NCBI GenBank assembly: GCA_023475165.1
Contig: JAMCWA010000034.1
Span: 31,081-95,080 of the forward strand
Direction of reading: 5' to 3'
Length of the DNA: 64,000 nucleotides
Origin: Bacillota bacterium
GTDB taxonomy: Bacteria; Bacillota; Sulfobacillia; JAMCWA01
In this document: piece after piece, positions 4,319 to 64,000 of the stretch
Position numbering within the stretch: position 1 is the stretch's first letter
How the letters are laid out: each line of letters begins with the position of its first letter
Notes under the pieces: generated by a model
What the model saw: only the letters and a program-made list of their open reading frames with translations
What the model was told of the DNA's origin: nothing
Databases searched by the model: none
Position numbers and translations under genes: made by a program

Positions 4319-5635
4319 TTGAAGTACCATATTGTTAATTTTGGCTGCCAGATGAACCTGCGGGACGCAGAGGTAATGGCGGGAATACTGGAAAAAGCCG
4401 GCTACGAAAGGGCAGAAGACATGGATGCCGCCGACGTCATCCTCGTCAATACCTGTGCCGTTCGGGATAGTGCTGAGAGGAAGATATATGGACAAATTGG
4501 CACCCTGGCCGAACTGAAGAAGAAAAGGCCGGGTCTGAAGATCGCTGTCACGGGTTGCCTGGCGCAACGCCCGGAGACCCCGGAGAAAATGCTTAATGTG
4601 GCTCCTCATGTCGATCTCCTTTTCGGAACCCATAACCAGCACGAGGTGGCCAATTTATTAGAACGGGTCAACGACAGCCGGGAGATGACGATAGATGTTT
4701 GGGACCAGGAGGGGGCAGTTCTGGAACATCTCCCCAGTCGGCGGGAAGACGGGTTGAAGGCTTGGGTTACCATCATGTACGGTTGTAATAATTTTTGTAC
4801 CTATTGCGTAGTTCCACAGGTCAGAGGACGTGAAAGGAGCCGCAATCCGGAGGGCATCCTGAGGGAAGTTAGAGAACTGGGCGAAAAAGGCTACAAGGAG
4901 ATCACCCTGCTGGGCCAGAATGTCAACTCCTACGGGAAGGATCTGGGCGGGACTTATACCTTCTCGGACTTGTTGCTGGATCTGGACAAGGTCCCCGGGA
5001 TTGAGAGAATCAGGTACATGACCTCCCATCCCCGGGACTTTTCCGACCGGCTGATTGAGGTCATCGCTGCCAGTCGCAAGGTCTGTGAACACTTCCATCT
5101 GCCCATCCAGTCTGGTAGTGACGAGATCCTCCGGCGCATGAACCGCGGTTACTCTCGCGAAAAATATCTGGAACTGACGAAGAAGATCCGGCGCGCCCTT
5201 CCGCAAGCCAGCCTGAGTACGGACATCATCGTTGGTTTCCCAGGAGAGAGGGAGGAGCACTTCCAAGAGACCCTGGAACTGATTCAGGAGGCCAGGTTTG
5301 ACGCTGCCTTTACCTTTATCTTCTCGCCTCGCTCCGGGACCCCCGCCGCCGGCATGCCCGAACAGATCCCCTACGAGGTGAAAAAGGAGCGCCTGGCTCA
5401 ATTGATGGAGGTGCAAAACCAGATCAGCTTGGAGAAAAACAAGGCTATGGTCGGGAAGATTTATGAGGTCCTTTTGGAAGGCCTTTCGCCAAAGAATCCG
5501 GACCGGCTGACGGGCCGAACCCGTACCAACAAGATCGTCCTCTTGTCAGGACCGGGGGAGAAGGTGGGGCAATTGGCTTCCGTCAAGATCCAACGGGCCA
5601 AGACCTGGACCCTGGACGGGGAACTAGAAGGGTAG
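4319..5635 (+). CDS. miaB: tRNA-2-methylthio-N6-dimethylallyladenosine synthase (radical SAM methylthiotransferase)
   Basis: N-terminal MTTase domain (MKYHIVNFGCQMN), a CNNFCTYC radical SAM motif and a C-terminal TRAM domain. TTG start with an AAGGA SD. Confidence 0.9.
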   Translation: MKYHIVNFGCQMNLRDAEVMAGILEKAGYERAEDMDAADVILVNTCAVRDSAERKIYGQIGTLAELKKKRPGLKIAVTGCLAQRPETPEKMLNVAPHVDLLFGTHNQHEVANLLERVNDSREMTIDVWDQEGAVLEHLPSRREDGLKAWVTIMYGCNNFCTYCVVPQVRGRERSRNPEGILREVRELGEKGYKEITLLGQNVNSYGKDLGGTYTFSDLLLDLDKVPGIERIRYMTSHPRDFSDRLIEVIAASRKVCEHFHLPIQSGSDEILRRMNRGYSREKYLELTKKIRRALPQASLSTDIIVGFPGEREEHFQETLELIQEARFDAAFTFIFSPRSGTPAAGMPEQIPYEVKKERLAQLMEVQNQISLEKNKAMVGKIYEVLLEGLSPKNPDRLTGRTRTNKIVLLSGPGEKVGQLASVKIQRAKTWTLDGELEG

Positions 5636-54912: not shown

Positions 54913-56490
54913 ATGCAGGAATTTTGCCAGGTTCCACGAAATATGATAAAGAACCTGCTGGCCATCGTGCTGAAGGCGGCAGGAAAACGACTTAAGGAGG
55001 TTGAAAAACAGGTGTCGGACAAGTCACTACCAGTCGAAAAGGTCCCCGCTGGTTACGGACCCCCCTGGGAACGGGGCGAGGAGATGCCGGCCACGCTTCC
55101 CTTTAACTGGTCTAACGCGTGGAAGGTTATCGGCCCCGGCTTTATTCTCCTTTCTCTCTCCATTGGCAGCGGCGAGTGGCTCATGGGCCCTGCCAGCGTC
55201 CTGAAGTACGGCACCTTCGTCCTATGGATCGTTTCCATCGGCATCATCACGCAAGCTGCTTTTAACCTGGTCATGACCAAGTATACCCTTTACACCGGTG
55301 AGCCGATCATGGTTGGGCTTACCCGCCTGGCACCGGGACCGTCCCTTTGGGTACCAATATGGGTGTTGATTTCGGTCGTCTCCATTGGGCCTGGCTGGGC
55401 CGCTGGTTCCGCTACCGCCATGGCGGCCATGTTCATGGGACGCATGCCCGGCAATGCTGACAAGGCCGTGGTTCTTGGGTCGGGCGTCGTCCTCTTTCTT
55501 ACCACTGTTTTCATCCTCATGTTCGGCGGTAAAGTCGAAGCCTGGCTGGAAAAGGTCAATAAGTGGATCGTCTATTTCATCTTTGGCAGCCTCTTCATCC
55601 TGGTTATCCTTTTTGCCCCCTTTGATAAATGGATCGAAGTGGCCGGTGGCTTCTTCAAGTTCGGCCAGTTGCCCAAAGGCAAGGTGGATTGGTTCCTCCT
55701 GGCCGGACTGGCCGGCTATGCCGGGGCCGGCGGCATCTTGAACATGGGTGTCACCAACTGGTATCGCGACAAGGGCTACGGCATGGGTGCGGTTGTCGGC
55801 TATATTCCCTCCCTCGTTGGTGGCAAGGAAATCCGCGTGGCCAAAAGCGGCAGGGTTCCACCCCAGAATCAAACCACCTTGGAAAGGTTCAAGGATTGGT
55901 GGAGATACGTGGTCCTCGACCAGATCGGCGTCTGGACCGTTGGAGCCTTCGTAGGTATGTTCCTAACGGTTCTTCTCTCCTATTCCATGGTCCCCACGGG
56001 CACCAACATGGACGGTTGGGCGGCCGCTGCCCACCAGGCCGAAGGTGTTGGTAAGGTGATGGGCTCCCTCGGCTGGTACTGGGTTTTGATGATCGGTTTC
56101 TGGGTCCTGTACGGTACCCAGCTTTCCAACAGCGATAGTTTCGTACGACAGATGTCTGACCTCCTCTGGGTAGCCAGCCCGTGGGTGCGGGAAAAGCTTT
56201 CCAAAGAGGACATTCGCCGCCTCTACTACGGCTTGCTCATCCTCTTCACCATCTGGTCCATTTATCTGGCCTTCCAGGGGACGCCTATGTTCCTGGTGGC
56301 CTTCATGGCCAACGCCGCCAACCTGGCCTTCACCGTGGGAGGTTTGCAGCTCCTTTTCCTGGAAAAATTCTATCCGAAGGAATTGAAGACCCCCCTCTGG
56401 GCCAAGGCGTTGATCGTCCTCCTGGTCCTCTTCTATGGTGCCTTCACGTTCATTGGTTTCGGGACCAAGTTCTTTGGCCTGAAGCTCTAA
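54913..56490 (+). CDS. Nramp-like (MntH-related, divergent) polytopic membrane transporter
   Basis: GPGFILLSLSIGSGEWLMGPA resembles the Nramp GPGFL...DPGN region. About 11 TM helices. Confidence 0.5.
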   Translation: MQEFCQVPRNMIKNLLAIVLKAAGKRLKEVEKQVSDKSLPVEKVPAGYGPPWERGEEMPATLPFNWSNAWKVIGPGFILLSLSIGSGEWLMGPASVLKYGTFVLWIVSIGIITQAAFNLVMTKYTLYTGEPIMVGLTRLAPGPSLWVPIWVLISVVSIGPGWAAGSATAMAAMFMGRMPGNADKAVVLGSGVVLFLTTVFILMFGGKVEAWLEKVNKWIVYFIFGSLFILVILFAPFDKWIEVAGGFFKFGQLPKGKVDWFLLAGLAGYAGAGGILNMGVTNWYRDKGYGMGAVVGYIPSLVGGKEIRVAKSGRVPPQNQTTLERFKDWWRYVVLDQIGVWTVGAFVGMFLTVLLSYSMVPTGTNMDGWAAAAHQAEGVGKVMGSLGWYWVLMIGFWVLYGTQLSNSDSFVRQMSDLLWVASPWVREKLSKEDIRRLYYGLLILFTIWSIYLAFQGTPMFLVAFMANAANLAFTVGGLQLLFLEKFYPKELKTPLWAKALIVLLVLFYGAFTFIGFGTKFFGLKL

Positions 56491-56753: not shown

Positions 56754-56790
56754 AAAGGTGACCGGAATCTCCATCAGCGGGGGTGAAAGT

Positions 56791-57150
56791 TTGGAAGGCG
56801 CACTGATCTGGCTGCTGGTGGCTTTCCTCAAAAGTCTGCGACTGCTGCATGGCTATCTCAGTAGTAACACCTTTCCCCAACCCCTGAGTGAAGAGGAGGA
56901 AACCCGCTACCTTAAGTTGCATGAAAAGGGCGATCTGAAGGCTAAAGGTGTACTGGTGGAAAGGAACCTGCGCCTGGTGGCCCACGTGGTGAAAAAATTC
57001 GGCAACATCCCGGATTCGGAGGATCTCATTTCAATAGGCACCGTAGGGCTGATCAAGGCCATTGACACCTTCGACCGTAAGAAGGGCACCAAGTTGGCCA
57101 CCTATGCGGCGCGCTGTATTGAAAACGAAATCTCAAAGACAGCACCTTAG
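56791..57150 (+). CDS. sigK: RNA polymerase sigma-K factor, 5' portion only (pro-sequence plus region 2); gene interrupted by an intervening element
   Basis: [23 protein letters not shown]...[13 protein letters not shown]...[17 protein letters not shown]...[17 protein letters not shown] is colinear with SigK. It then diverges (SKTAP*) into AT-rich DNA at about 57135. TTG 56791 has a GGGGGTG SD (the ORF-track GTG at 56758 is an alternative). A CATACTATA sigE/sigK-type -10 lies upstream. Confidence 0.8.
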
Positions 57151-57580
57151 CTATATTTTGGGGCTGTTTTGGGTGATTTTTAGCTAAAAGAAGATGATAG
57201 GGACAGAAATTAAACCATAATAAAATATTGAAATTTTTTTGAAAACTAGCAGGAAATTTCGAGTTTGTAGCTAATAAAATTAGTAGCTGCCAAAAGTGAA
57301 TATTATAGGGAATGATGGGGGTGGAAGAGACCCTTGCGGGCGCCGTAGGAGTAATTTATCGCGAGGTGGCGCGATAAAGAACCTCTCAGGCAAAAGGACT
57401 ACTCCCGAACCCAACTCTGGAGAGTTTCCTTAAAGTATGTTTTAAGGAGCGCCAAAGGGGAAAGCAGAGGATTGCTAATCTCTCAGGCAAGAGGTGATTG
57501 GCAGGAATCGTACGTAGGTGTGAGGTGCTCCGTGTTGCCGCAAGGCGGGGGGAGAATTGTGTGAAGGGAGGTGAGGTAAC

Positions 57581-57796
57581 ATGCCCGTGCTGGTTCATGA
57601 GGGGATTTACCAGATCCATTGGTGCATCCACAGCGGATCTGCAGCACTGCCCCTTTCCCTGACCAACCGAGCATCGGCGGAGGAGGCTTCGAAGATCGTC
57701 GAGAAGGGACTAATGGGGATGCGCGGACAGCGGATCCTGGAGCAGTTGTTTGCGAACAAGATGGCACTGTCGGAGGCGTTGTCGTGGGAGAAATGA
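57581..57796 (+). CDS. Small ORF (71 aa), candidate precursor peptide of the downstream radical-SAM operon
   Basis: Strongest SD in the region (GGGAGGTGAGG, 5-nt spacing). An aromatic/His-rich N-terminus (HEGIYQIHWCIHS) and a C-terminal ...LSWEK. A 10-bp-stem hairpin follows before the rhodanese gene. Confidence 0.35.
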   Translation: MPVLVHEGIYQIHWCIHSGSAALPLSLTNRASAEEASKIVEKGLMGMRGQRILEQLFANKMALSEALSWEK

Positions 57797-57823
57797 GTTG
57801 CGTCAGTGCACCGCGCGGTGGCC

Positions 57824-57855
57824 AGGGGGTCCGCCGCCTTCGTGACGGACCCCCT
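57824..57855 (+). promoter_or_regulatory. Stable hairpin between the small ORF and the rhodanese gene (putative attenuator / mRNA-processing structure)
   Basis: AGGGGGTCCG-12 nt-CGGACCCCCT, a 10-bp GC stem with no U-tract. Preceded by the palindrome CACCGCGCGGTG. Confidence 0.4.
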
Positions 57856-57894
57856 ACTGTGCGAAGAACGGAGTCAGAGAGGAGAGGATCACAT

Positions 57895-58233
57895 ATGCAA
57901 ATTGACGCCATAACAAAAGAGGAGTTGCTGTCCATGTATGGTAATCCAGACGTCATTGTACTCAATGTCCTTCCCCGCGACTGGTTTGAGCGTGCCCATA
58001 TCCTGGGGTCGATCTCAATCCCCGTGGAAGAGTTGGCGGGTCGCTTGGACTGTTTACCTAGCGACAAGCTCATCGTTACGTACTGCGCAAGCTACGGGTG
58101 TACCTCCTGTGTCGAGGCGGCGCAGTTCTTGGCCAGCCACGGCTTTAACGTCAAGGTTTACAGAGGTGGGACCAAGGAGTGGATGGAAGCCGGTCTTCCG
58201 TGGGAGGGCAGCGAAAGAGACCATGAGCCCTGA
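57895..58233 (+). CDS. Rhodanese-domain protein (single-domain sulfurtransferase)
   Basis: ATG 57895 with a GGAGAGGA SD. Rhodanese fold with a Cys loop (TYCASYGCTSC). The long upstream extension in the ORF track is low-complexity and rejected. Confidence 0.7.
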   Translation: MQIDAITKEELLSMYGNPDVIVLNVLPRDWFERAHILGSISIPVEELAGRLDCLPSDKLIVTYCASYGCTSCVEAAQFLASHGFNVKVYRGGTKEWMEAGLPWEGSERDHEP

Positions 58234-59434
58234 TCATCCTCTCGCGATCCTACGCGATTCCCCGCTGTACGCTTCGGACCCACGTTTCCGACGCAGAGCG
58301 GATATGCGACTGGCTCGGGAGCAGAAGTTTGCCACCCTGCGCCTGTTCAACCTCGACATAGAGGTTACCACGGTTTGCAACCTAGCTTGTAGGACCTGCT
58401 ACAATCTACCGGCCCAGACACAGATTATGAGAGTGGAGGAGTTCAGCCATATCCTGGCGGACGCACGGCAGCTTGTCGGTCGTCTGGGCATGGATGGGCT
58501 CTGGCTGACGATTTCCGGTGGAGAGCCGTTAATGAATGAACACCTTTGGGACATGCTTCGGCTGGCCCAAGCCCAAGGCGTTGAAGGTATTGCCATCATC
58601 ACTAATGGCACCCTCGTCAACGAAGAAACGGCAAAGCGGATTCGATCTCTGGGGATCTCAGAAGTCATGATATCGCTCGATGGGGCTAGCGAGCGGATAC
58701 ACGATGCCATCCGGGGCCTCGGGTCGTTTGCAAGGACCATCGGCGGCGTTAAGGCTATGATGGAGCACTGTTCCGGTACATTCCTTGGCTGCACACTGAC
58801 CCTTACCAAGCTAAACATGGACGAGATCAAAGCTTACGTCGATTTCGCCTTCGACCTGGGGTTCAACTATGCGTGGATCAATCCCCCGCTTTACTGCGGG
58901 CGTATGGTGCAATCACAGCTTAGCATCTCGTACGAGGAACACATAAGAGTGATGAATCTCGTTAGAGAACTCGACACCAGGTACTTCAGGCAGGGTTTCG
59001 CGGTGTACTATAATGTCCCGTACTACCCGCTTACTGATCCGATCTCTCCCTATTTGGATCTGAGCACGGCCTGCCCCTGGGGTCGCAACAACCTAACTGT
59101 CACCACCGACGGCTCAGTCCTCCCTTGCTTGTACAGTCGCGACTTACGTTTGGGGAATGCCTTCGAACAGCCCCTAGTCGCCCTCTACCAATCATCTGTG
59201 CTGAAGGGGTTCCGTGACGGATCGCTGCTCGCTGAGCCGTGCCGTTCCTGCTCCTACCGGGGATTCTGCGGGGGCTGCCGTGCTAGAACGTACTATCTCA
59301 CCGGGGACTGGTTCGCTGCCGACCCTTGGTGCCCGCTTGTCCGGGGCTCCACTGAGGAGCAACTCAGGGTGTTTCCCTCGGGTTTGCCAAAAGAAAACGT
59401 GGGAGGGATGCAGCATAACAGAACGGTCGACTAA
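58223..59434 (+). CDS. Radical SAM enzyme with C-terminal SPASM domain (peptide/cofactor-modifying type)
   Basis: CNLACRTCY (CxxxCxxC) and the SPASM cysteine array (CPWG...C...CRSCSYRGFCGGCRARTY...CP). No N-terminal RRE is present. Confidence 0.85.
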   Translation: MSPDHPLAILRDSPLYASDPRFRRRADMRLAREQKFATLRLFNLDIEVTTVCNLACRTCYNLPAQTQIMRVEEFSHILADARQLVGRLGMDGLWLTISGGEPLMNEHLWDMLRLAQAQGVEGIAIITNGTLVNEETAKRIRSLGISEVMISLDGASERIHDAIRGLGSFARTIGGVKAMMEHCSGTFLGCTLTLTKLNMDEIKAYVDFAFDLGFNYAWINPPLYCGRMVQSQLSISYEEHIRVMNLVRELDTRYFRQGFAVYYNVPYYPLTDPISPYLDLSTACPWGRNNLTVTTDGSVLPCLYSRDLRLGNAFEQPLVALYQSSVLKGFRDGSLLAEPCRSCSYRGFCGGCRARTYYLTGDWFAADPWCPLVRGSTEEQLRVFPSGLPKENVGGMQHNRTVD

Positions 59435-59447
59435 CGGGGGCCTACCC

Positions 59448-60611
59448 GTGTCCTACTACATCAGGCGTTATGTCGTCGCCCTTTGCCTTCTGGAGTTCTT
59501 TGCCTTTAAGATCCTCGATCCGTACTATATCCAGTTCATGACCACGGAGCGGGGACTTGGTCTCACCCCTACCCAATTTGGCTTATTTGTGTCCCTGGCC
59601 TCGGCGGTCACCTCCGCTATCGACTACTTGTCCGGAGCCTTTGCAGACCGGCTGGGCCGGCGACTCTCTTGGGGGCTGGCAATGTTTTCTTACGGGCTAG
59701 GCATGCTATGGCTGAGTTCGGTTTCTGCCTTTGGACCTGCGCTGGTCACTGCTGTGTTCATGGGGACTTCCTACGCCTTCGCGAGCGGCGCACGCGAAGC
59801 TTGGCTCTACGATAATGTCGGCCAAGAGGGCACGCGGCAGGCCTTCGGTAAGGTCTACCTTTACTCGGTCCCGTTTACCATGCTAGGCATGGGGGCGGCG
59901 TTCGGTTTGGGCGGCCTGGGCAGCCTGCGCCTCCCGATCGCCTTGACCGGCCTTATCGTCCTGGCCGACGGCTTGTTTATCATGACCTTCCCAGAGAACT
60001 ATGGCAGTTACCGCCGCCGCGGATGGCTGGAGGTCCTCAAGGTCGGGTTCCGCCAGTTTCTGGAGAGCCGTGTTCTGTGGCTGACGGCAGCCCAGAGCTT
60101 CTTCTTCACCCTCCCTATCTGGATTACCACCGCCTGGTGGATAACCTACCTGGTGCAGCAGTTCGGCGTAGACTTGAGGGACACAGCCCTTGCCTTCGGC
60201 GTTACTTCGCTGGCTGCAGCAATGACCGGGTTTTGCATCTGCAAGATGAAGGCCACCGACTACCGCAAGCTTATCCTTTGGCCGACACTGTTATCGTCGT
60301 TGGCTTTCCTGCTGATGCCCTTGGCTCCTACGCCGTGGGCTTTCGTGGCCCTGGTCATCGCGGCGGTTGCCTCCGGCTACTTCAGGGGGAGCGGCATCAC
60401 TCTCTTGGAGAACGAGCAGATCAGTGAGGAGCGGGCGACGGCACTCTCGTTCTTGAACACCCTGCGTAGCGCATTCTGGGCGGTGGCTCCTCTCTTGTGG
60501 GGTGCCCTTATCTCCGCCTTTGGACTTGAGGTCGCATTCTTTCTCGCAGGAGCAGCTTCGCTGATCTCTCTGCTCCTGCTGATACTTGCGTTAGCGCTAA
60601 GGGGTGGCTAG
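59448..60611 (+). CDS. MFS transporter (putative exporter)
   Basis: GTG 59448 with a GGGGG SD. About 12 TM helices and a DRLGRR loop. Confidence 0.7.
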   Translation: MSYYIRRYVVALCLLEFFAFKILDPYYIQFMTTERGLGLTPTQFGLFVSLASAVTSAIDYLSGAFADRLGRRLSWGLAMFSYGLGMLWLSSVSAFGPALVTAVFMGTSYAFASGAREAWLYDNVGQEGTRQAFGKVYLYSVPFTMLGMGAAFGLGGLGSLRLPIALTGLIVLADGLFIMTFPENYGSYRRRGWLEVLKVGFRQFLESRVLWLTAAQSFFFTLPIWITTAWWITYLVQQFGVDLRDTALAFGVTSLAAAMTGFCICKMKATDYRKLILWPTLLSSLAFLLMPLAPTPWAFVALVIAAVASGYFRGSGITLLENEQISEERATALSFLNTLRSAFWAVAPLLWGALISAFGLEVAFFLAGAASLISLLLLILALALRGG

Positions 60612-60613
60612 CC

Positions 60614-61984
60614 ATGAAAGGGATTGTTGTGCCCGAGCGACCCTACCACCTATCTTGGGACCTCACTACGGCGTGCCGACTTCACTGTAGCTTCTGCTAC
60701 AGCGCTGGAGGAAGGCCCCACCCGGCCGAAACTACCGAGCTAATTGAAACGATCCTCGACAATGTGGTGGAACTGAAACCACTACACCTAGGCATCGGCG
60801 GGGGAGATCCCCTGTTAAGCCCGTACATTGCCGAACTATTGCAGCGGCTAGTGGAACGAATGAGGGACGAGACACCAATCATCACCGTGGACACTATGAT
60901 GGTGAACCGACGAGAGGATCTGGTCCGGCAGGTCCGGCGACTCAACGAGGATTTCGGAGAACACCGGATACAGTTCTACCTGAGCATCCACGGGGCCCCC
61001 GAGGTTCATGACCGAATCGTTGGACTCAAGGGGCACTTCGAGGAACAGGTGGAGGGCATCAAGCTCCTAAAGCAGTACGGGGTCAACTTCAACTTGGGTA
61101 TCGTACCGACGAGGGAAAACCTTGACCAACTCGACGCAATGCTTGCCTTGGCCCTGCGTCTGGGCGCTGGTCTCCTCAACATCTCCCAATTCGTCCCTAT
61201 CGGGAGGGGTGACCGGGCATACGATCACAACCTGAGCCCCGAGCAGTACCGTCGGCTCCTGGACTGGATCGTGACGCGTAATGCTCAACTCCGCCGGCGC
61301 TACATAGTGACCCACGAGCACTGGATGGCGGCTGTTGATCAGGCGCTTTTTACGAGCAGCCTTTTTGTTGGTTGCAGCGCTGGGATTTACTACTTCGGCG
61401 TACGCAGCAATGGCGATGTCGTTCCTTGTCAGCTTAACCCGTATGTGCTCGGCAATGTCCGGGAGGCAAGACTGACCGAGATCTGGCGGTGGCACCCCTT
61501 GCTGCAACGATGGAGGGAGCGGCGCGTTGACGGCCGATGTGGCGATTGCCCCCTGCTCTTCAAGTGCGGAGGCTGCCGGTGCAACGCTGTGGCGTACTCC
61601 GGCGACTTTTTCGGTGAAGATTCACTTTGTCCCTTTGCAGCAGAAGAGTTAATCAGCCTGAATCAAACGGGCCAAGAGGTTAACGCCACAGCAGTCAATG
61701 GCAGCTTGTCGGAAACAGCCATTAGGAATGACATGTGGATTGTAAAGCTGGTTACGCTTGCCACCCCGCAAGGCGATTCTTTGGTCATCCGCAACGAGCC
61801 CCGAAACACTTTCGTTGAGCTTAACGGTGACGCGACCATCATCTACGGCCTGGTTCCGCCACAATATGGGATCACGTTAGGTGACCTCAGGGCTGTCTTT
61901 AAGGAGCGCACAGGCAAGGAACTGCCCGTGGAGGAATTGGGGGCACTAGTCCGTTCGGGGGTCCTAGGATGCGTAGCCGGATAA
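60614..61984 (+). CDS. Radical SAM/SPASM enzyme with C-terminal PqqD-like RiPP-recognition element
   Basis: CRLHCSFCY; SPASM array (CSAG...C...GRCGDCPLLFKCGGCRC...CP). The C-terminal 100 aa (LVIRNEPRNTFVELNGDATIIYGL...LGDLRAVFKERTG) resemble PqqD/RRE. Confidence 0.85.
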   Translation: MKGIVVPERPYHLSWDLTTACRLHCSFCYSAGGRPHPAETTELIETILDNVVELKPLHLGIGGGDPLLSPYIAELLQRLVERMRDETPIITVDTMMVNRREDLVRQVRRLNEDFGEHRIQFYLSIHGAPEVHDRIVGLKGHFEEQVEGIKLLKQYGVNFNLGIVPTRENLDQLDAMLALALRLGAGLLNISQFVPIGRGDRAYDHNLSPEQYRRLLDWIVTRNAQLRRRYIVTHEHWMAAVDQALFTSSLFVGCSAGIYYFGVRSNGDVVPCQLNPYVLGNVREARLTEIWRWHPLLQRWRERRVDGRCGDCPLLFKCGGCRCNAVAYSGDFFGEDSLCPFAAEELISLNQTGQEVNATAVNGSLSETAIRNDMWIVKLVTLATPQGDSLVIRNEPRNTFVELNGDATIIYGLVPPQYGITLGDLRAVFKERTGKELPVEELGALVRSGVLGCVAG

Positions 61985-63144
61985 CATACTCCGTGCAGGC
62001 GCGGCACGTTGAGATACGCCGGGGGCGCGTTTGCGGAGTCAGAACTTACGAGGACTCCCAGGCTCATTTCGTGACGTACTTCGGGCGAACCGTCGTTGTG
62101 GACGGTGCTTGCGGACCGAGAGTGTTCACGCTTCCTCGGGCTGCTGAATGGGAACCAGACCCTGTGCATTTGGACGTCGACCGAGGTCTTCTCGAGAAAG
62201 AACGCTTGCTTGTTGCTGTTGATGTAGTGGCGAGCTATCCCGTCGATGCCGCGCTTTCGTTTTATCGGGAGGAACGGGTGGTAGAGACCGATGGCTTTGT
62301 CAAGCGCCAGTGCATAGGCTTCTATGCCTTACGGCTTCGAGAACAGTCCAGATCCTATGTGTACGCTGACGTTGCTCCCGAGAAGTTGGGTGAGCTGTGT
62401 GCTCTGCACACGCTGCCCCAGGGCGCACCCGTTCCAGACGGGCTACCGATTGTCCTAAGCCCCAACGCTGTTGGCCATATCTTTCACGAGTGGGCCCATC
62501 TACTAGAACTTGACTTTTTAGGGCATGAGGCTGCGTCGCGTATCGAGGGCAGCCCGGTCTTTGACGACTGTGCGGATCTCCAGGTCTTCGAAGATCCTGG
62601 GACAGAGACCGTGGGATTCAATGCTTTCAGCGACGACGCCCGAATCGCTAGGCGGATGCCTCTTGTAGAGCGAGGCAGGATAGCGGGGTTCATAGACAGC
62701 GCCGCATTCCCACACCGCTACTTCGGGTGCGGATATCTCGGATACAACAATAGCGGCCATCCTGTTCCTCGCACGACCAACCTCATGGTTCAGGCTAGGC
62801 CAACGGCATACGAGGTCGAGCGAGCACTAGTGGTCACTGGACTTGACCTGGAACTCTTGACCGCAGATCCCCTCCATGCTCGGATCGGCCTCAAGAGTAG
62901 CGAGGGTGTTTACGTGGAGCACGGGATGCCGGTACACCGAGTAACTTGGACGGGTGGGGGCGAAACGACGGTCCAGAGGCTAGTATCGAGCATGATGTTT
63001 CTTAACCCCTCGCATATCCGCGTCCCCGTAGTTGGTGGAATTTGTGTCAAAAATGGCATCGCGGTTCGCTCCGCTCAGAGCGCGCCAGCAGCGCTGCTTG
63101 AGGCTTGTACGGCGCGCTTACCGTGGAAGAACTTGTCGGCATGA
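61969..63144 (+). CDS. TldD/PmbA-family metallopeptidase-like protein
   Basis: HEWAH motif and a C-terminal G-rich PmbA_TldD-like segment (GYNNSGHPVPRTTNLMV). The start overlaps the previous gene. Confidence 0.55.
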   Translation: MRSRITYSVQARHVEIRRGRVCGVRTYEDSQAHFVTYFGRTVVVDGACGPRVFTLPRAAEWEPDPVHLDVDRGLLEKERLLVAVDVVASYPVDAALSFYREERVVETDGFVKRQCIGFYALRLREQSRSYVYADVAPEKLGELCALHTLPQGAPVPDGLPIVLSPNAVGHIFHEWAHLLELDFLGHEAASRIEGSPVFDDCADLQVFEDPGTETVGFNAFSDDARIARRMPLVERGRIAGFIDSAAFPHRYFGCGYLGYNNSGHPVPRTTNLMVQARPTAYEVERALVVTGLDLELLTADPLHARIGLKSSEGVYVEHGMPVHRVTWTGGGETTVQRLVSSMMFLNPSHIRVPVVGGICVKNGIAVRSAQSAPAALLEACTARLPWKNLSA

Positions 63145-63642: not shown

Positions 63643-64000
63643 CTATATTTCCTTCATTTCACTAAGGGGCAAGGCCCGGCAACGCGAAATTTGGCAACAG
63701 CCCCATGACCGCACTGGTACACATTTTTCCTTGCCAAACCCACCGCGGGCGTACTGGAAGATCTCTTCGATGGCCTCTGGTGTGAAGAGGGGGGAGGTGC
63801 GCCCCGCCACCTTCAGGTGGTGGGCGATGTACTCCCTGGTTTCCGGGGCGGTGAGTCCGCGCATGTGGTACCGCACCGTGAGCCGCTGCGTGATGTGGTC
63901 GTAGCAGGAGAGCCGGAGCATGTCCCGCAGGGGGGGCTGGTCCACGAGGATGAGCGCCATGGGGCAGGTGCTCTCCATGGCGATGTTGGTGAGCAGCCTG
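63643..64000 (-). CDS. ExeA/TniB-like AAA+ ATPase (transposition helper), C-terminal part; continues past the window end
   Basis: QRLTVRYHMRGLTAPETREYIAHHLKVAGRTSPLFTPEAIEEIFQYARG matches the ExeA/TniB C-terminal signature. The ORF stays open to position 64000. Confidence 0.5.
   Translation of the reverse strand, partial: RLLTNIAMESTCPMALILVDQPPLRDMLRLSCYDHITQRLTVRYHMRGLTAPETREYIAHHLKVAGRTSPLFTPEAIEEIFQYARGGFGKEKCVPVRSWGCCQISRCRALPLSEMKEI

Follow-up and report, generated by a model that had tools for sequence, protein, structure and literature searches.

The peptide gene and its cassette

The window analysed here is a stretch of 64,000 nt from a Bacillota bacterium (GTDB lineage Bacteria; Bacillota; Sulfobacillia; JAMCWA01; contig JAMCWA010000034.1). 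In it, a 71-codon open reading frame (ORF) on the forward strand precedes genes for a rhodanese, two radical S-adenosylmethionine (rSAM) enzymes with SPASM domains, a transporter of the major facilitator superfamily (MFS) and a TldD-like peptidase. An earlier note, made from the sequence, had proposed that this ORF encodes the precursor of a ribosomally made peptide with post-translational modifications (RiPP). As described below, comparative evidence gives good support to the precursor interpretation and places the conserved part of the peptide in its N-terminal third. The genes and signals are as follows:

57566..57576, + strand: Shine-Dalgarno (SD) sequence GGGAGGTGAGG, 7 nt 5' of the ATG, read from the sequence
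57581..57796, + strand: 71-aa candidate precursor peptide gene, stop included (ATG 57581, TGA 57794-57796; from the ORF list)
57895..58233, + strand: single-domain rhodanese, accessory (PF00581, E 5.8e-15)
58223..59434, + strand: rSAM/SPASM enzyme 1 (rSAM-1), no recognition domain, start codon uncertain (Radical_SAM and SPASM domains)
59448..60611, + strand: MFS transporter, presumed exporter (PF07690, E 1.4e-20; start uncertain, GTG 59448 or ATA 59415)
60614..61984, + strand: rSAM/SPASM enzyme 2 (rSAM-2), with a flexibly linked C-terminal domain
61969..63144, + strand: TldD/PmbA-like metallopeptidase (PF19289, E 4.7e-07)

The start of the peptide gene is unambiguous, since an in-frame stop lies two codons 5' of ATG 57581. 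The sequence of the ORF is exactly as the earlier note gave it, its strong SD is present as described there, and the orthologues carry AGGAGGTGA at the equivalent SD position. A word-indexed search returned four 71-aa proteins with 68–100% identity. When the genes of four orthologues were compared, the differences at codon positions 1/2/3 (e.g. 16/7/40 and 15/8/27) showed an excess at the third position, and therefore purifying selection acts on the protein and not on an RNA element. Judged from these comparisons, the 71-codon ORF is a real, translated gene. Its product had no match in Pfam or NCBIfam, including at an E value of 10; thus neither a regulator family nor any other family in these databases claims it.

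The cassette has a fixed gene order: the small ORF, always first, an optional rhodanese gene, and the genes for rSAM-1, the MFS protein, rSAM-2 and the TldD-like peptidase. This order was found in three Caldanaerobacter subterraneus genomes, at the metagenomic loci L005-L008, and at L009/L010, L013, L015/L016 and L025. The hosts comprise Caldanaerobacter, several Clostridia metagenome-assembled genomes (MAGs) and archaeal contigs, and include the cultured thermophiles C. subterraneus and Thermoclostridium stercorarium. Synteny of the first gene with both rSAM genes, the MFS gene and the peptidase gene holds in Bacteria and Archaea down to 47–52% enzyme identity. In the four closest lineages, the cassette proteins are 54–84% identical (MFS protein, 82–84% to its orthologues) and the peptide 68–77%. 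Homologues of the small ORF thus adjoin both rSAM/SPASM genes in every lineage with visible context, as the earlier note had expected of a precursor gene; it had held that absence or lack of conservation in syntenic clusters would speak against one, and this was not what we found, because the ORF is syntenic throughout. An MFS gene and a TldD-like peptidase with an HExxH motif are present in every complete cassette, and no other conserved small ORF was found within or beside the cassette at the loci compared. The rhodanese gene is optional, since it is missing from L008, L015 and L025 and is a pseudogene in L005 (1611-1990); there, in-frame TAG codons stand at three places for His, His and Trp of the intact orthologue, while the peptide gene and both rSAM genes are intact.

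Transposases, a relaxase or a group II intron flank the cassette, and the 3' end of an archaeal 23S rRNA is found on one contig (L013); the cassette is therefore mobile and crosses the domain boundary. In strain MB4 (L001/L002, 13560-16397), the MFS and rSAM-2 genes are separated by inserted transposases of the IS110 and IS66 types, and a group II intron and a relaxase gene lie just upstream of the cassette at L015 (1783-2085) and L016 (2616-4294). Three observations on the surroundings may be added. 1) In the window, positions 63643-63978 on the minus strand hold a fragment of an unidentified gene without a Pfam match, judged by eye only to be transposon-related. 2) An orphan gene for a 61-aa peptide (P0009; L011 218-403, L012 876-1061) is located directly 3' of an IS630-type transposase gene on a contig of archaeal appearance; no cassette genes follow it. 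3) In a Bacillota MAG (L018), a cobalamin riboswitch (4717-4894, minus strand, 110 bits) lies some 4 kb downstream of the peptide gene, on the strand opposite to it; the cassette there is thus probably truncated or rearranged.

Both rSAM proteins scored far below the cut-off of every NCBIfam equivalog. In sequence and fold they are closest to the peptide-modifying SPASM/twitch enzymes SuiB, SkfB, PqqE, CteB and ChlB; by sequence, the nearest solved relatives of both are SkfB, PqqE, SuiB and CteB, with PqqE the closest to rSAM-1. The C-terminal domain of rSAM-2 (residues ~370–456) is predicted to form four strands and three helices on a disordered tether. Among 21 family members, this domain gave weak matches to PqqD in 2 (E 0.017) and to QhpD in 2 (E 0.0015); we treat it as a putative RiPP recognition element (RRE), the likely assignment. 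The TldD-like protein is matched by Pfam only in its C-terminal domain and had no relative among the PDB sequences. Its motif FHE[WYF][AV]HxLE is kept in six orthologues, which is consistent with an active metallopeptidase.

The N-terminal module and its 23-residue counterparts

Alignment of 11 sequences divided the peptide into a conserved N-terminal part and a variable remainder:

57581..57649, + strand: codons 1–23, conserved N-terminal module, proposed site of recognition and modification (11-sequence alignment; 23-aa ORFs)
57602-57631, + strand: invariant motif G8-H17, GIYQIHWCIH (11-sequence alignment)
57650..57793, + strand: codons 24–71, extension specific to the bacterial-type cassette, proposed follower or handle (alignment, AlphaFold)

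The N-terminal motif of the family reads G-I-[YF]-Q-I-H-[WC]-C-I-H. Columns G8, I9, Q11, I12, H13, C15, I16, H17, P24, S26 and A31 are invariant, W14 is nearly so, and C15, the single Cys of the peptide, is invariant in the long form. Codons 24–71 encode a PLSLT[DN]xA motif, two predicted helices and a terminal L-[SN]-[WYFL]-[EDN]-[KRV], and indels or deletions of 9–14 residues occur in the middle of the peptide across homologues. The C-terminal tripeptide is WEK, WER, WEV(EG), YER, YEK, LNR (member P0006) or FDR. In the AlphaFold model (mean predicted local distance difference test score, pLDDT, 53), residues 1–31 have values below 50 with no stable fold predicted, and the helices span residues 33–46 and 50–70 (pLDDT 59–72).

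The earlier note described the N-terminal segment accurately as rich in His and aromatic residues, and it singled out H13, W14, C15, W69 and K71 as candidates for modification. The first three stand up well, two being invariant and one nearly so. The proposed cross-link in the C-terminal W-x-K does not: the residues are present in the window, but W69 is replaced by L, F or Y and K71 by R or V in homologues that keep the N-terminal motif unchanged, and K60, W69 and K71 all vary in the family.

Divergent homologues of rSAM-2, including those of Theionarchaea MAGs, occur without rSAM-1, MFS or peptidase genes and have two S-adenosylmethionine (SAM) methyltransferase genes upstream. We found that all 5 of these loci contain, in the gap upstream of the rSAM gene, a 23-codon ORF with a AGGAGGTG SD that had not been called as a gene (L014 7755-7826; L017 7754-7825; L028 2338-2409; L029 1611-1682; L030 2629-2700). 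The five deduced peptides are MAVKVHKGLNQIMWHIRDSPKSK, MPVKVHKSMYQVAWHIRGSKKKK, MAVKVHKGLNQVCWHIRDSPKSK, MAVKVHKGLNQIIWFIRDSPKSK and MPVKIHRGINQVLWHIRDSPKSK, with the consensus M[AP]VKVHKGLNQ[IV]xWHIRDSPKSK, and they align position by position with residues 1–23 of the window peptide (MPVLVHEGIYQIHWCIHSGSAAL). In an ungapped comparison, nucleotide identity was 64–92% within the ORFs as against about 25%, the random level, in the flanks. These ORFs look like a minimal precursor family missed by gene callers.

Across the long and the 23-aa forms, Q11, [IV]12 and I16 are constant, and G8 and W14 have one exception each. H13, C15 and H17 are specific features of the long form, C15 being absent from most of the 23-aa forms, and the tail RDSPKSK is kept in 4 of the 5 short peptides. 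The rSAM-2 clade therefore accompanies the N-terminal module, and rSAM-1 accompanies features restricted to the long form. The suggestion of the earlier note that a functional patch at the N-terminus may be followed by a follower peptide has gained strength from the invariant residues in G8-H17 and from the 23-aa peptides, which consist of that segment alone. These data support the view that the conserved functional part probably comprises the first ~23 residues, not the C-terminal Trp-x-Lys.

Hairpin, riboswitch and upstream region

Two RNA-level features border the peptide gene:

57308..57471, + strand: tandem glycine-class riboswitch (RF00504, RF03166), aptamer 1 at 57312-57411
57812..57863, + strand: GC-rich hairpin (outer helix), inner stem 57824-57833 / 57846-57855 (folding)

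The hairpin was correctly described in the earlier note: its inner stem has 10 bp, 8 of them G-C, and the sequence after it, UACUGUGCGAAG, contains no U-tract. For GC-rich DNA, the folding energy calculated over the 100-nt intergenic region is unremarkable (z = -1.3 to -1.5; of 200 shuffled sequences, 15–19 fold equally well). In L008, the closest relative, identical stem arms (GGGGGUCC/GGACCCCC) enclose another loop, and GUUUUCG follows; the structure at this position in L005 is a different one, and no comparable stem was found in L003, L009, L013, L015 or L025, where the next gene begins 0–54 nt after the stop. The hairpin is common only to the window and L008, and we rejected it as a trait of the family; the earlier reading of it as the characteristic device controlling precursor–enzyme stoichiometry is not supported, given its absence from these five loci. 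In this lineage, the hairpin may affect the stability of the transcript or terminate it in part.

In the riboswitch, aptamer 1 passes the gathering score of RF00504 (Glycine; 53.2 bits vs 32), with GGAAGAG where GGAGAG is expected. The tandem variant RF03166 (glycine-GGAnGA) matched with E 8e-16, its 80.1 bits falling short of the gathering score of 110, and a second aptamer (CUCUGGAGAG...CUCUCAGGCAAGAGG), extending to about 57510, was recognised by eye only. No gene intervenes between the riboswitch and the peptide ORF, and both are on the same strand. When the riboswitch and leader region was folded by minimum free energy, no clear expression platform emerged (z = -0.55), neither a clear terminator nor a clear SD-sequestering one, and a promoter and terminator scan of the region was uninformative. 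In the literature, the name glycine-GGAnGA turned up in a single paper, and there in the methods only. At every other locus the riboswitch is absent upstream of the cassette, and it was rejected as a cassette part; the same position in other hosts is occupied by a gene for a Crp/Fnr, PAS-LuxR or helix-turn-helix-tetratricopeptide repeat (HTH-TPR) regulator. A glycine riboswitch is an unusual partner for a RiPP-type operon.

Further upstream, positions 56758-57150 (+ strand) encode only the N-terminal half of SigK (NCBIfam profile positions 5–115 of 235), after which the frame ends. Since this gene is of half length and no C-terminal half of sigK was found within the window, the riboswitch and cassette may lie in a sigK-intervening (skin-like) element beginning at ~57150; alternatively, the fragment is a sigK pseudogene. 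Upstream of it, positions 54913-56490 (+ strand) encode an Nramp-family divalent-metal transporter, which is not in the cassette elsewhere and is noted here beside the His-x-Cys-x-His of the peptide.

Interpretation and comparison with known systems

We favour the interpretation, with a probability of about 0.62, that the 71-aa ORF encodes the substrate peptide of an uncharacterised, horizontally mobile RiPP-type cassette and that its N-terminal module is modified. The locus has what is expected of the generic rSAM/SPASM RiPP class: i) a small ORF adjacent to the maturase genes, on the same strand and conserved together with them, ii) a coding sequence whose product has no independent fold or known domain, and iii) a peptidase and an exporter. 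That the peptide is modified, and by which chemistry, is a proposal from comparison, and within the mechanism that follows we infer the residues modified, the division of labour between the two rSAM enzymes, the direction of trimming and the export.

The unstructured N-terminal ~23 residues would form a self-sufficient module for both recognition and modification. The C-terminal domain of rSAM-2 may dock the N-terminal strand (M-x-V-x-V...G), and the radical-SAM core of the same enzyme would then modify Q11-[IV]12-x-[W/C]14-x-I16, most plausibly by a side-chain cross-link. Found only with long peptides, rSAM-1 may act on H13, C15 and H17, on the helical C-terminal extension as a follower or handle, or on both. 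The TldD-like peptidase would trim the unmodified remainder and the MFS protein would export the product, the rhodanese being dispensable. In this genome, the operon would lie behind the glycine riboswitch, and the GC hairpin may stabilise or partly terminate a short transcript.

Several observations weigh against this interpretation. W14, one of the proposed modification sites, is Cys in one homologue (P0011), and the AlphaFold model of the peptide was built on a shallow alignment of only four sequences. Taken alone, the 23-aa ORFs match the family profile weakly (E 0.014–0.24 in small searches), and the case for them therefore rests on their position, length, SD and conservation. For the C-terminal domain of rSAM-2, a profile search of PDB sequences gave nothing relevant, and hhalign against four PqqD-annotated domains gave the expected register at E 0.062 with negligible probability. 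Finally, TldD/E in microcin B17 maturation threads its substrates from the N-terminus (PMC10885120), and such threading is easier to reconcile with a leader at the N-terminus than with a core there.

This last point bears on a classical leader-core arrangement, in which the N-terminal segment would serve recognition only, the core would be C-terminal (...KLALSEALSWEK here, RDSPKSK in the 23-aa peptides) and the TldD-like peptidase would remove the leader from the N-terminus. TldD/E acts like a 'pencil sharpener' on the N-terminus and halts where it meets a modification (PMC10885120); in addition, most of the ORFs end right after the semi-conserved L-[SN]-[WYFL]-[EDN]-[KRV], 4 of 5 short peptides share RDSPKSK, and a shared leader with cores specific to the cassette type would be normal for RiPPs. 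However, the absolute invariance of His13, Cys15 and His17 would be unusual for a mere docking strand, cassettes whose enzymes are conserved have L, F or Y for the terminal aromatic W and R or V for the basic K, with indels before them, and the 23-aa peptides would be left with a core of only 7 residues. We regard this arrangement as unlikely, although it is the main rival.

The ORF might also encode an accessory protein rather than a substrate, i.e. a metal or sulfur carrier (His13-x-Cys15-x-His17) that works together with the rhodanese, a small regulator, or a protein for immunity or chaperoning; a small molecule, or a peptide encoded elsewhere, would then be the true substrate. With the alternating H-x-C-x-H, three metal or persulfide ligands would point to the same side of a strand, a rhodanese gene comes next in several lineages, the C-terminal half is predicted to be helical, and rSAM/SPASM enzymes also act on non-peptide substrates, with AhbD and NirJ among the nearest, below-cut-off, NCBIfam models. 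But the 23-aa forms lack both His residues (and most of them the Cys) and still accompany the rSAM-2 clade, and several cassettes in which the peptide is intact have a decayed rhodanese gene or none; an accessory role is thus less likely. The peptide also carries no DNA-binding or other family signature in Pfam or NCBIfam, a dedicated peptidase and exporter are conserved together with it, and the nearest structural relatives of the rSAM enzymes are all peptide maturases. We consider this explanation improbable.

That the ORF is untranslated and its conservation that of an RNA element, e.g. the expression platform of the riboswitch, whose aptamers end about 70–110 nt before it, is hardly credible in view of the third-position excess, the length and frame conserved at loci without a riboswitch and the strong SD in all copies.

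Returning to the substrate peptide with a modified N-terminal module, one may speculate further on its product. A small peptide-derived cofactor, redox molecule or metal-binding compound could be carved from the Q-I-H-W-C-I-H of a follower-type precursor, in the manner of pyrroloquinoline quinone (PQQ) or mycofactocin and not as an antibiotic-like compound, with the 23-aa form of Archaea as the ancestral one, new rSAM chemistry on Gln11 and Trp/Cys14, and production tied to glycine through the riboswitch. As a whole, we hold this picture to be doubtful.

The family is tiny, very rare and uncharacterised. A profile search with the peptide through 1.84 billion representative proteins found eight true relatives (8 clusters); a 1163-aa repeat protein (P0012) from the same search was discarded as a false positive owing to low complexity. 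At the DNA level, a degenerate pattern of the motif occurred in 4 of 185,579 species genomes. The rSAM-2 clade comprises 23 clusters at identities of at least 46%, beyond which identity is ~30%, and the rSAM-1 clade about 16 clusters at identities of at least 50%, followed by a drop to about 30–33%. No papers were found for the motif QIHWCIH, and literature searches on Caldanaerobacter with rSAM, SPASM, TldD or follower peptides gave nothing beyond general reviews and Tte1186a, an unrelated SCIFF peptide. The sources checked gave no functional name for any cassette protein, and no paper on the system was found. New rSAM RiPP families turn up regularly, and here a kind of system that is well known has a new precursor family of unusual layout.

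If the interpretation is true, the family would add to radical-SAM peptide chemistry precursors whose recognition and modification sites lie within the first ~23 residues, followed, depending on the lineage, by nothing or by a 48-residue follower. The pair of a long bacterial-type and a 23-aa archaeal-type peptide would offer a ready-made minimal substrate and a route to assigning each rSAM enzyme its target. Since the family occurs in the cultured thermophiles named above, it is experimentally accessible. A glycine riboswitch before a RiPP operon would be an unusual regulatory link.

Among known systems, microcin B17 provides, with TldD-TldE, a TldD-family peptidase tied to ribosomal-peptide maturation (PMC10885120); the cassette described here differs in having a single divergent TldD-like gene inside the cluster, with HExxH rather than HExxxH. 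Darobactin provides a precedent for a follower in an rSAM/SPASM system, but the follower of its precursor DarA is only a few residues long and a 48-aa leader is present (PMC9055067). The window peptide, in contrast, has room for a leader of no more than about 7–10 residues. Bottromycin has an N-terminal core and a follower of about 35 aa, and shares with the window peptide the layout of a conserved, probably modified N-terminal segment and a long C-terminal extension. Bottromycin maturation is not known to involve SPASM cross-linking enzymes.

Two aromatic-X-X triplets occur in the peptides, the conserved W14-x-I16 and the terminal [WYF]-[ED]-[KR], which we take to be like those cross-linked by the rSAM/SPASM enzymes of triceptides. 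Triceptide precursors are usually leader-first and contain repeated motifs. The present system differs in that no curated maturase family was matched above its cut-off, some members have lost the terminal triplet (P0006 has LNR) and W14 is Cys in one.

Judged by sequence, the cassette appears to fall outside the sactipeptides and ranthipeptides, streptide, mycofactocin and PQQ. The sactipeptide and ranthipeptide types (SCIFF, AlbA, SkfB and PapB) have several Cys donors, whereas the peptide here has a single Cys, and their NCBIfam models were far below cut-offs. The streptide system consists of the StrA/SuiA peptide, the rSAM/SPASM enzyme StrB/SuiB, which forms a Lys-Trp cross-link, and StrC; no KxxxW occurs anywhere in the window peptide, the KxxxW and StrB models were not among the NCBIfam matches, and identity to SuiB is only 18%, with the RRE N-terminal in SuiB and the extra domain C-terminal here. 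With respect to mycofactocin (MftA/MftC), the peptide ends in SWEK, not G-V-Y, and the two rSAM proteins reached 121.9 and 83.3 bits against the TIGR03962 cut-off of 265.

The PQQ system consists of PqqA (23–29 aa), the rSAM/SPASM enzyme PqqE, the peptide-binding RRE PqqD and the peptidase PqqF/G. The window peptide lacks the E-x-x-x-Y motif, and the TIGR02109 scores of 113.7 and 89.1 bits compare with a cut-off of 381; the cassette has no PqqB or PqqC genes and contains two rSAM enzymes, an MFS exporter and, on the bacterial-type peptide, a 48-aa C-terminal extension. The nearest functional analogy is nevertheless with PqqA/PqqE/PqqD, since both systems combine a peptide of ~23 aa carrying an invariant internal motif with a docking domain, putative here, and a peptidase.

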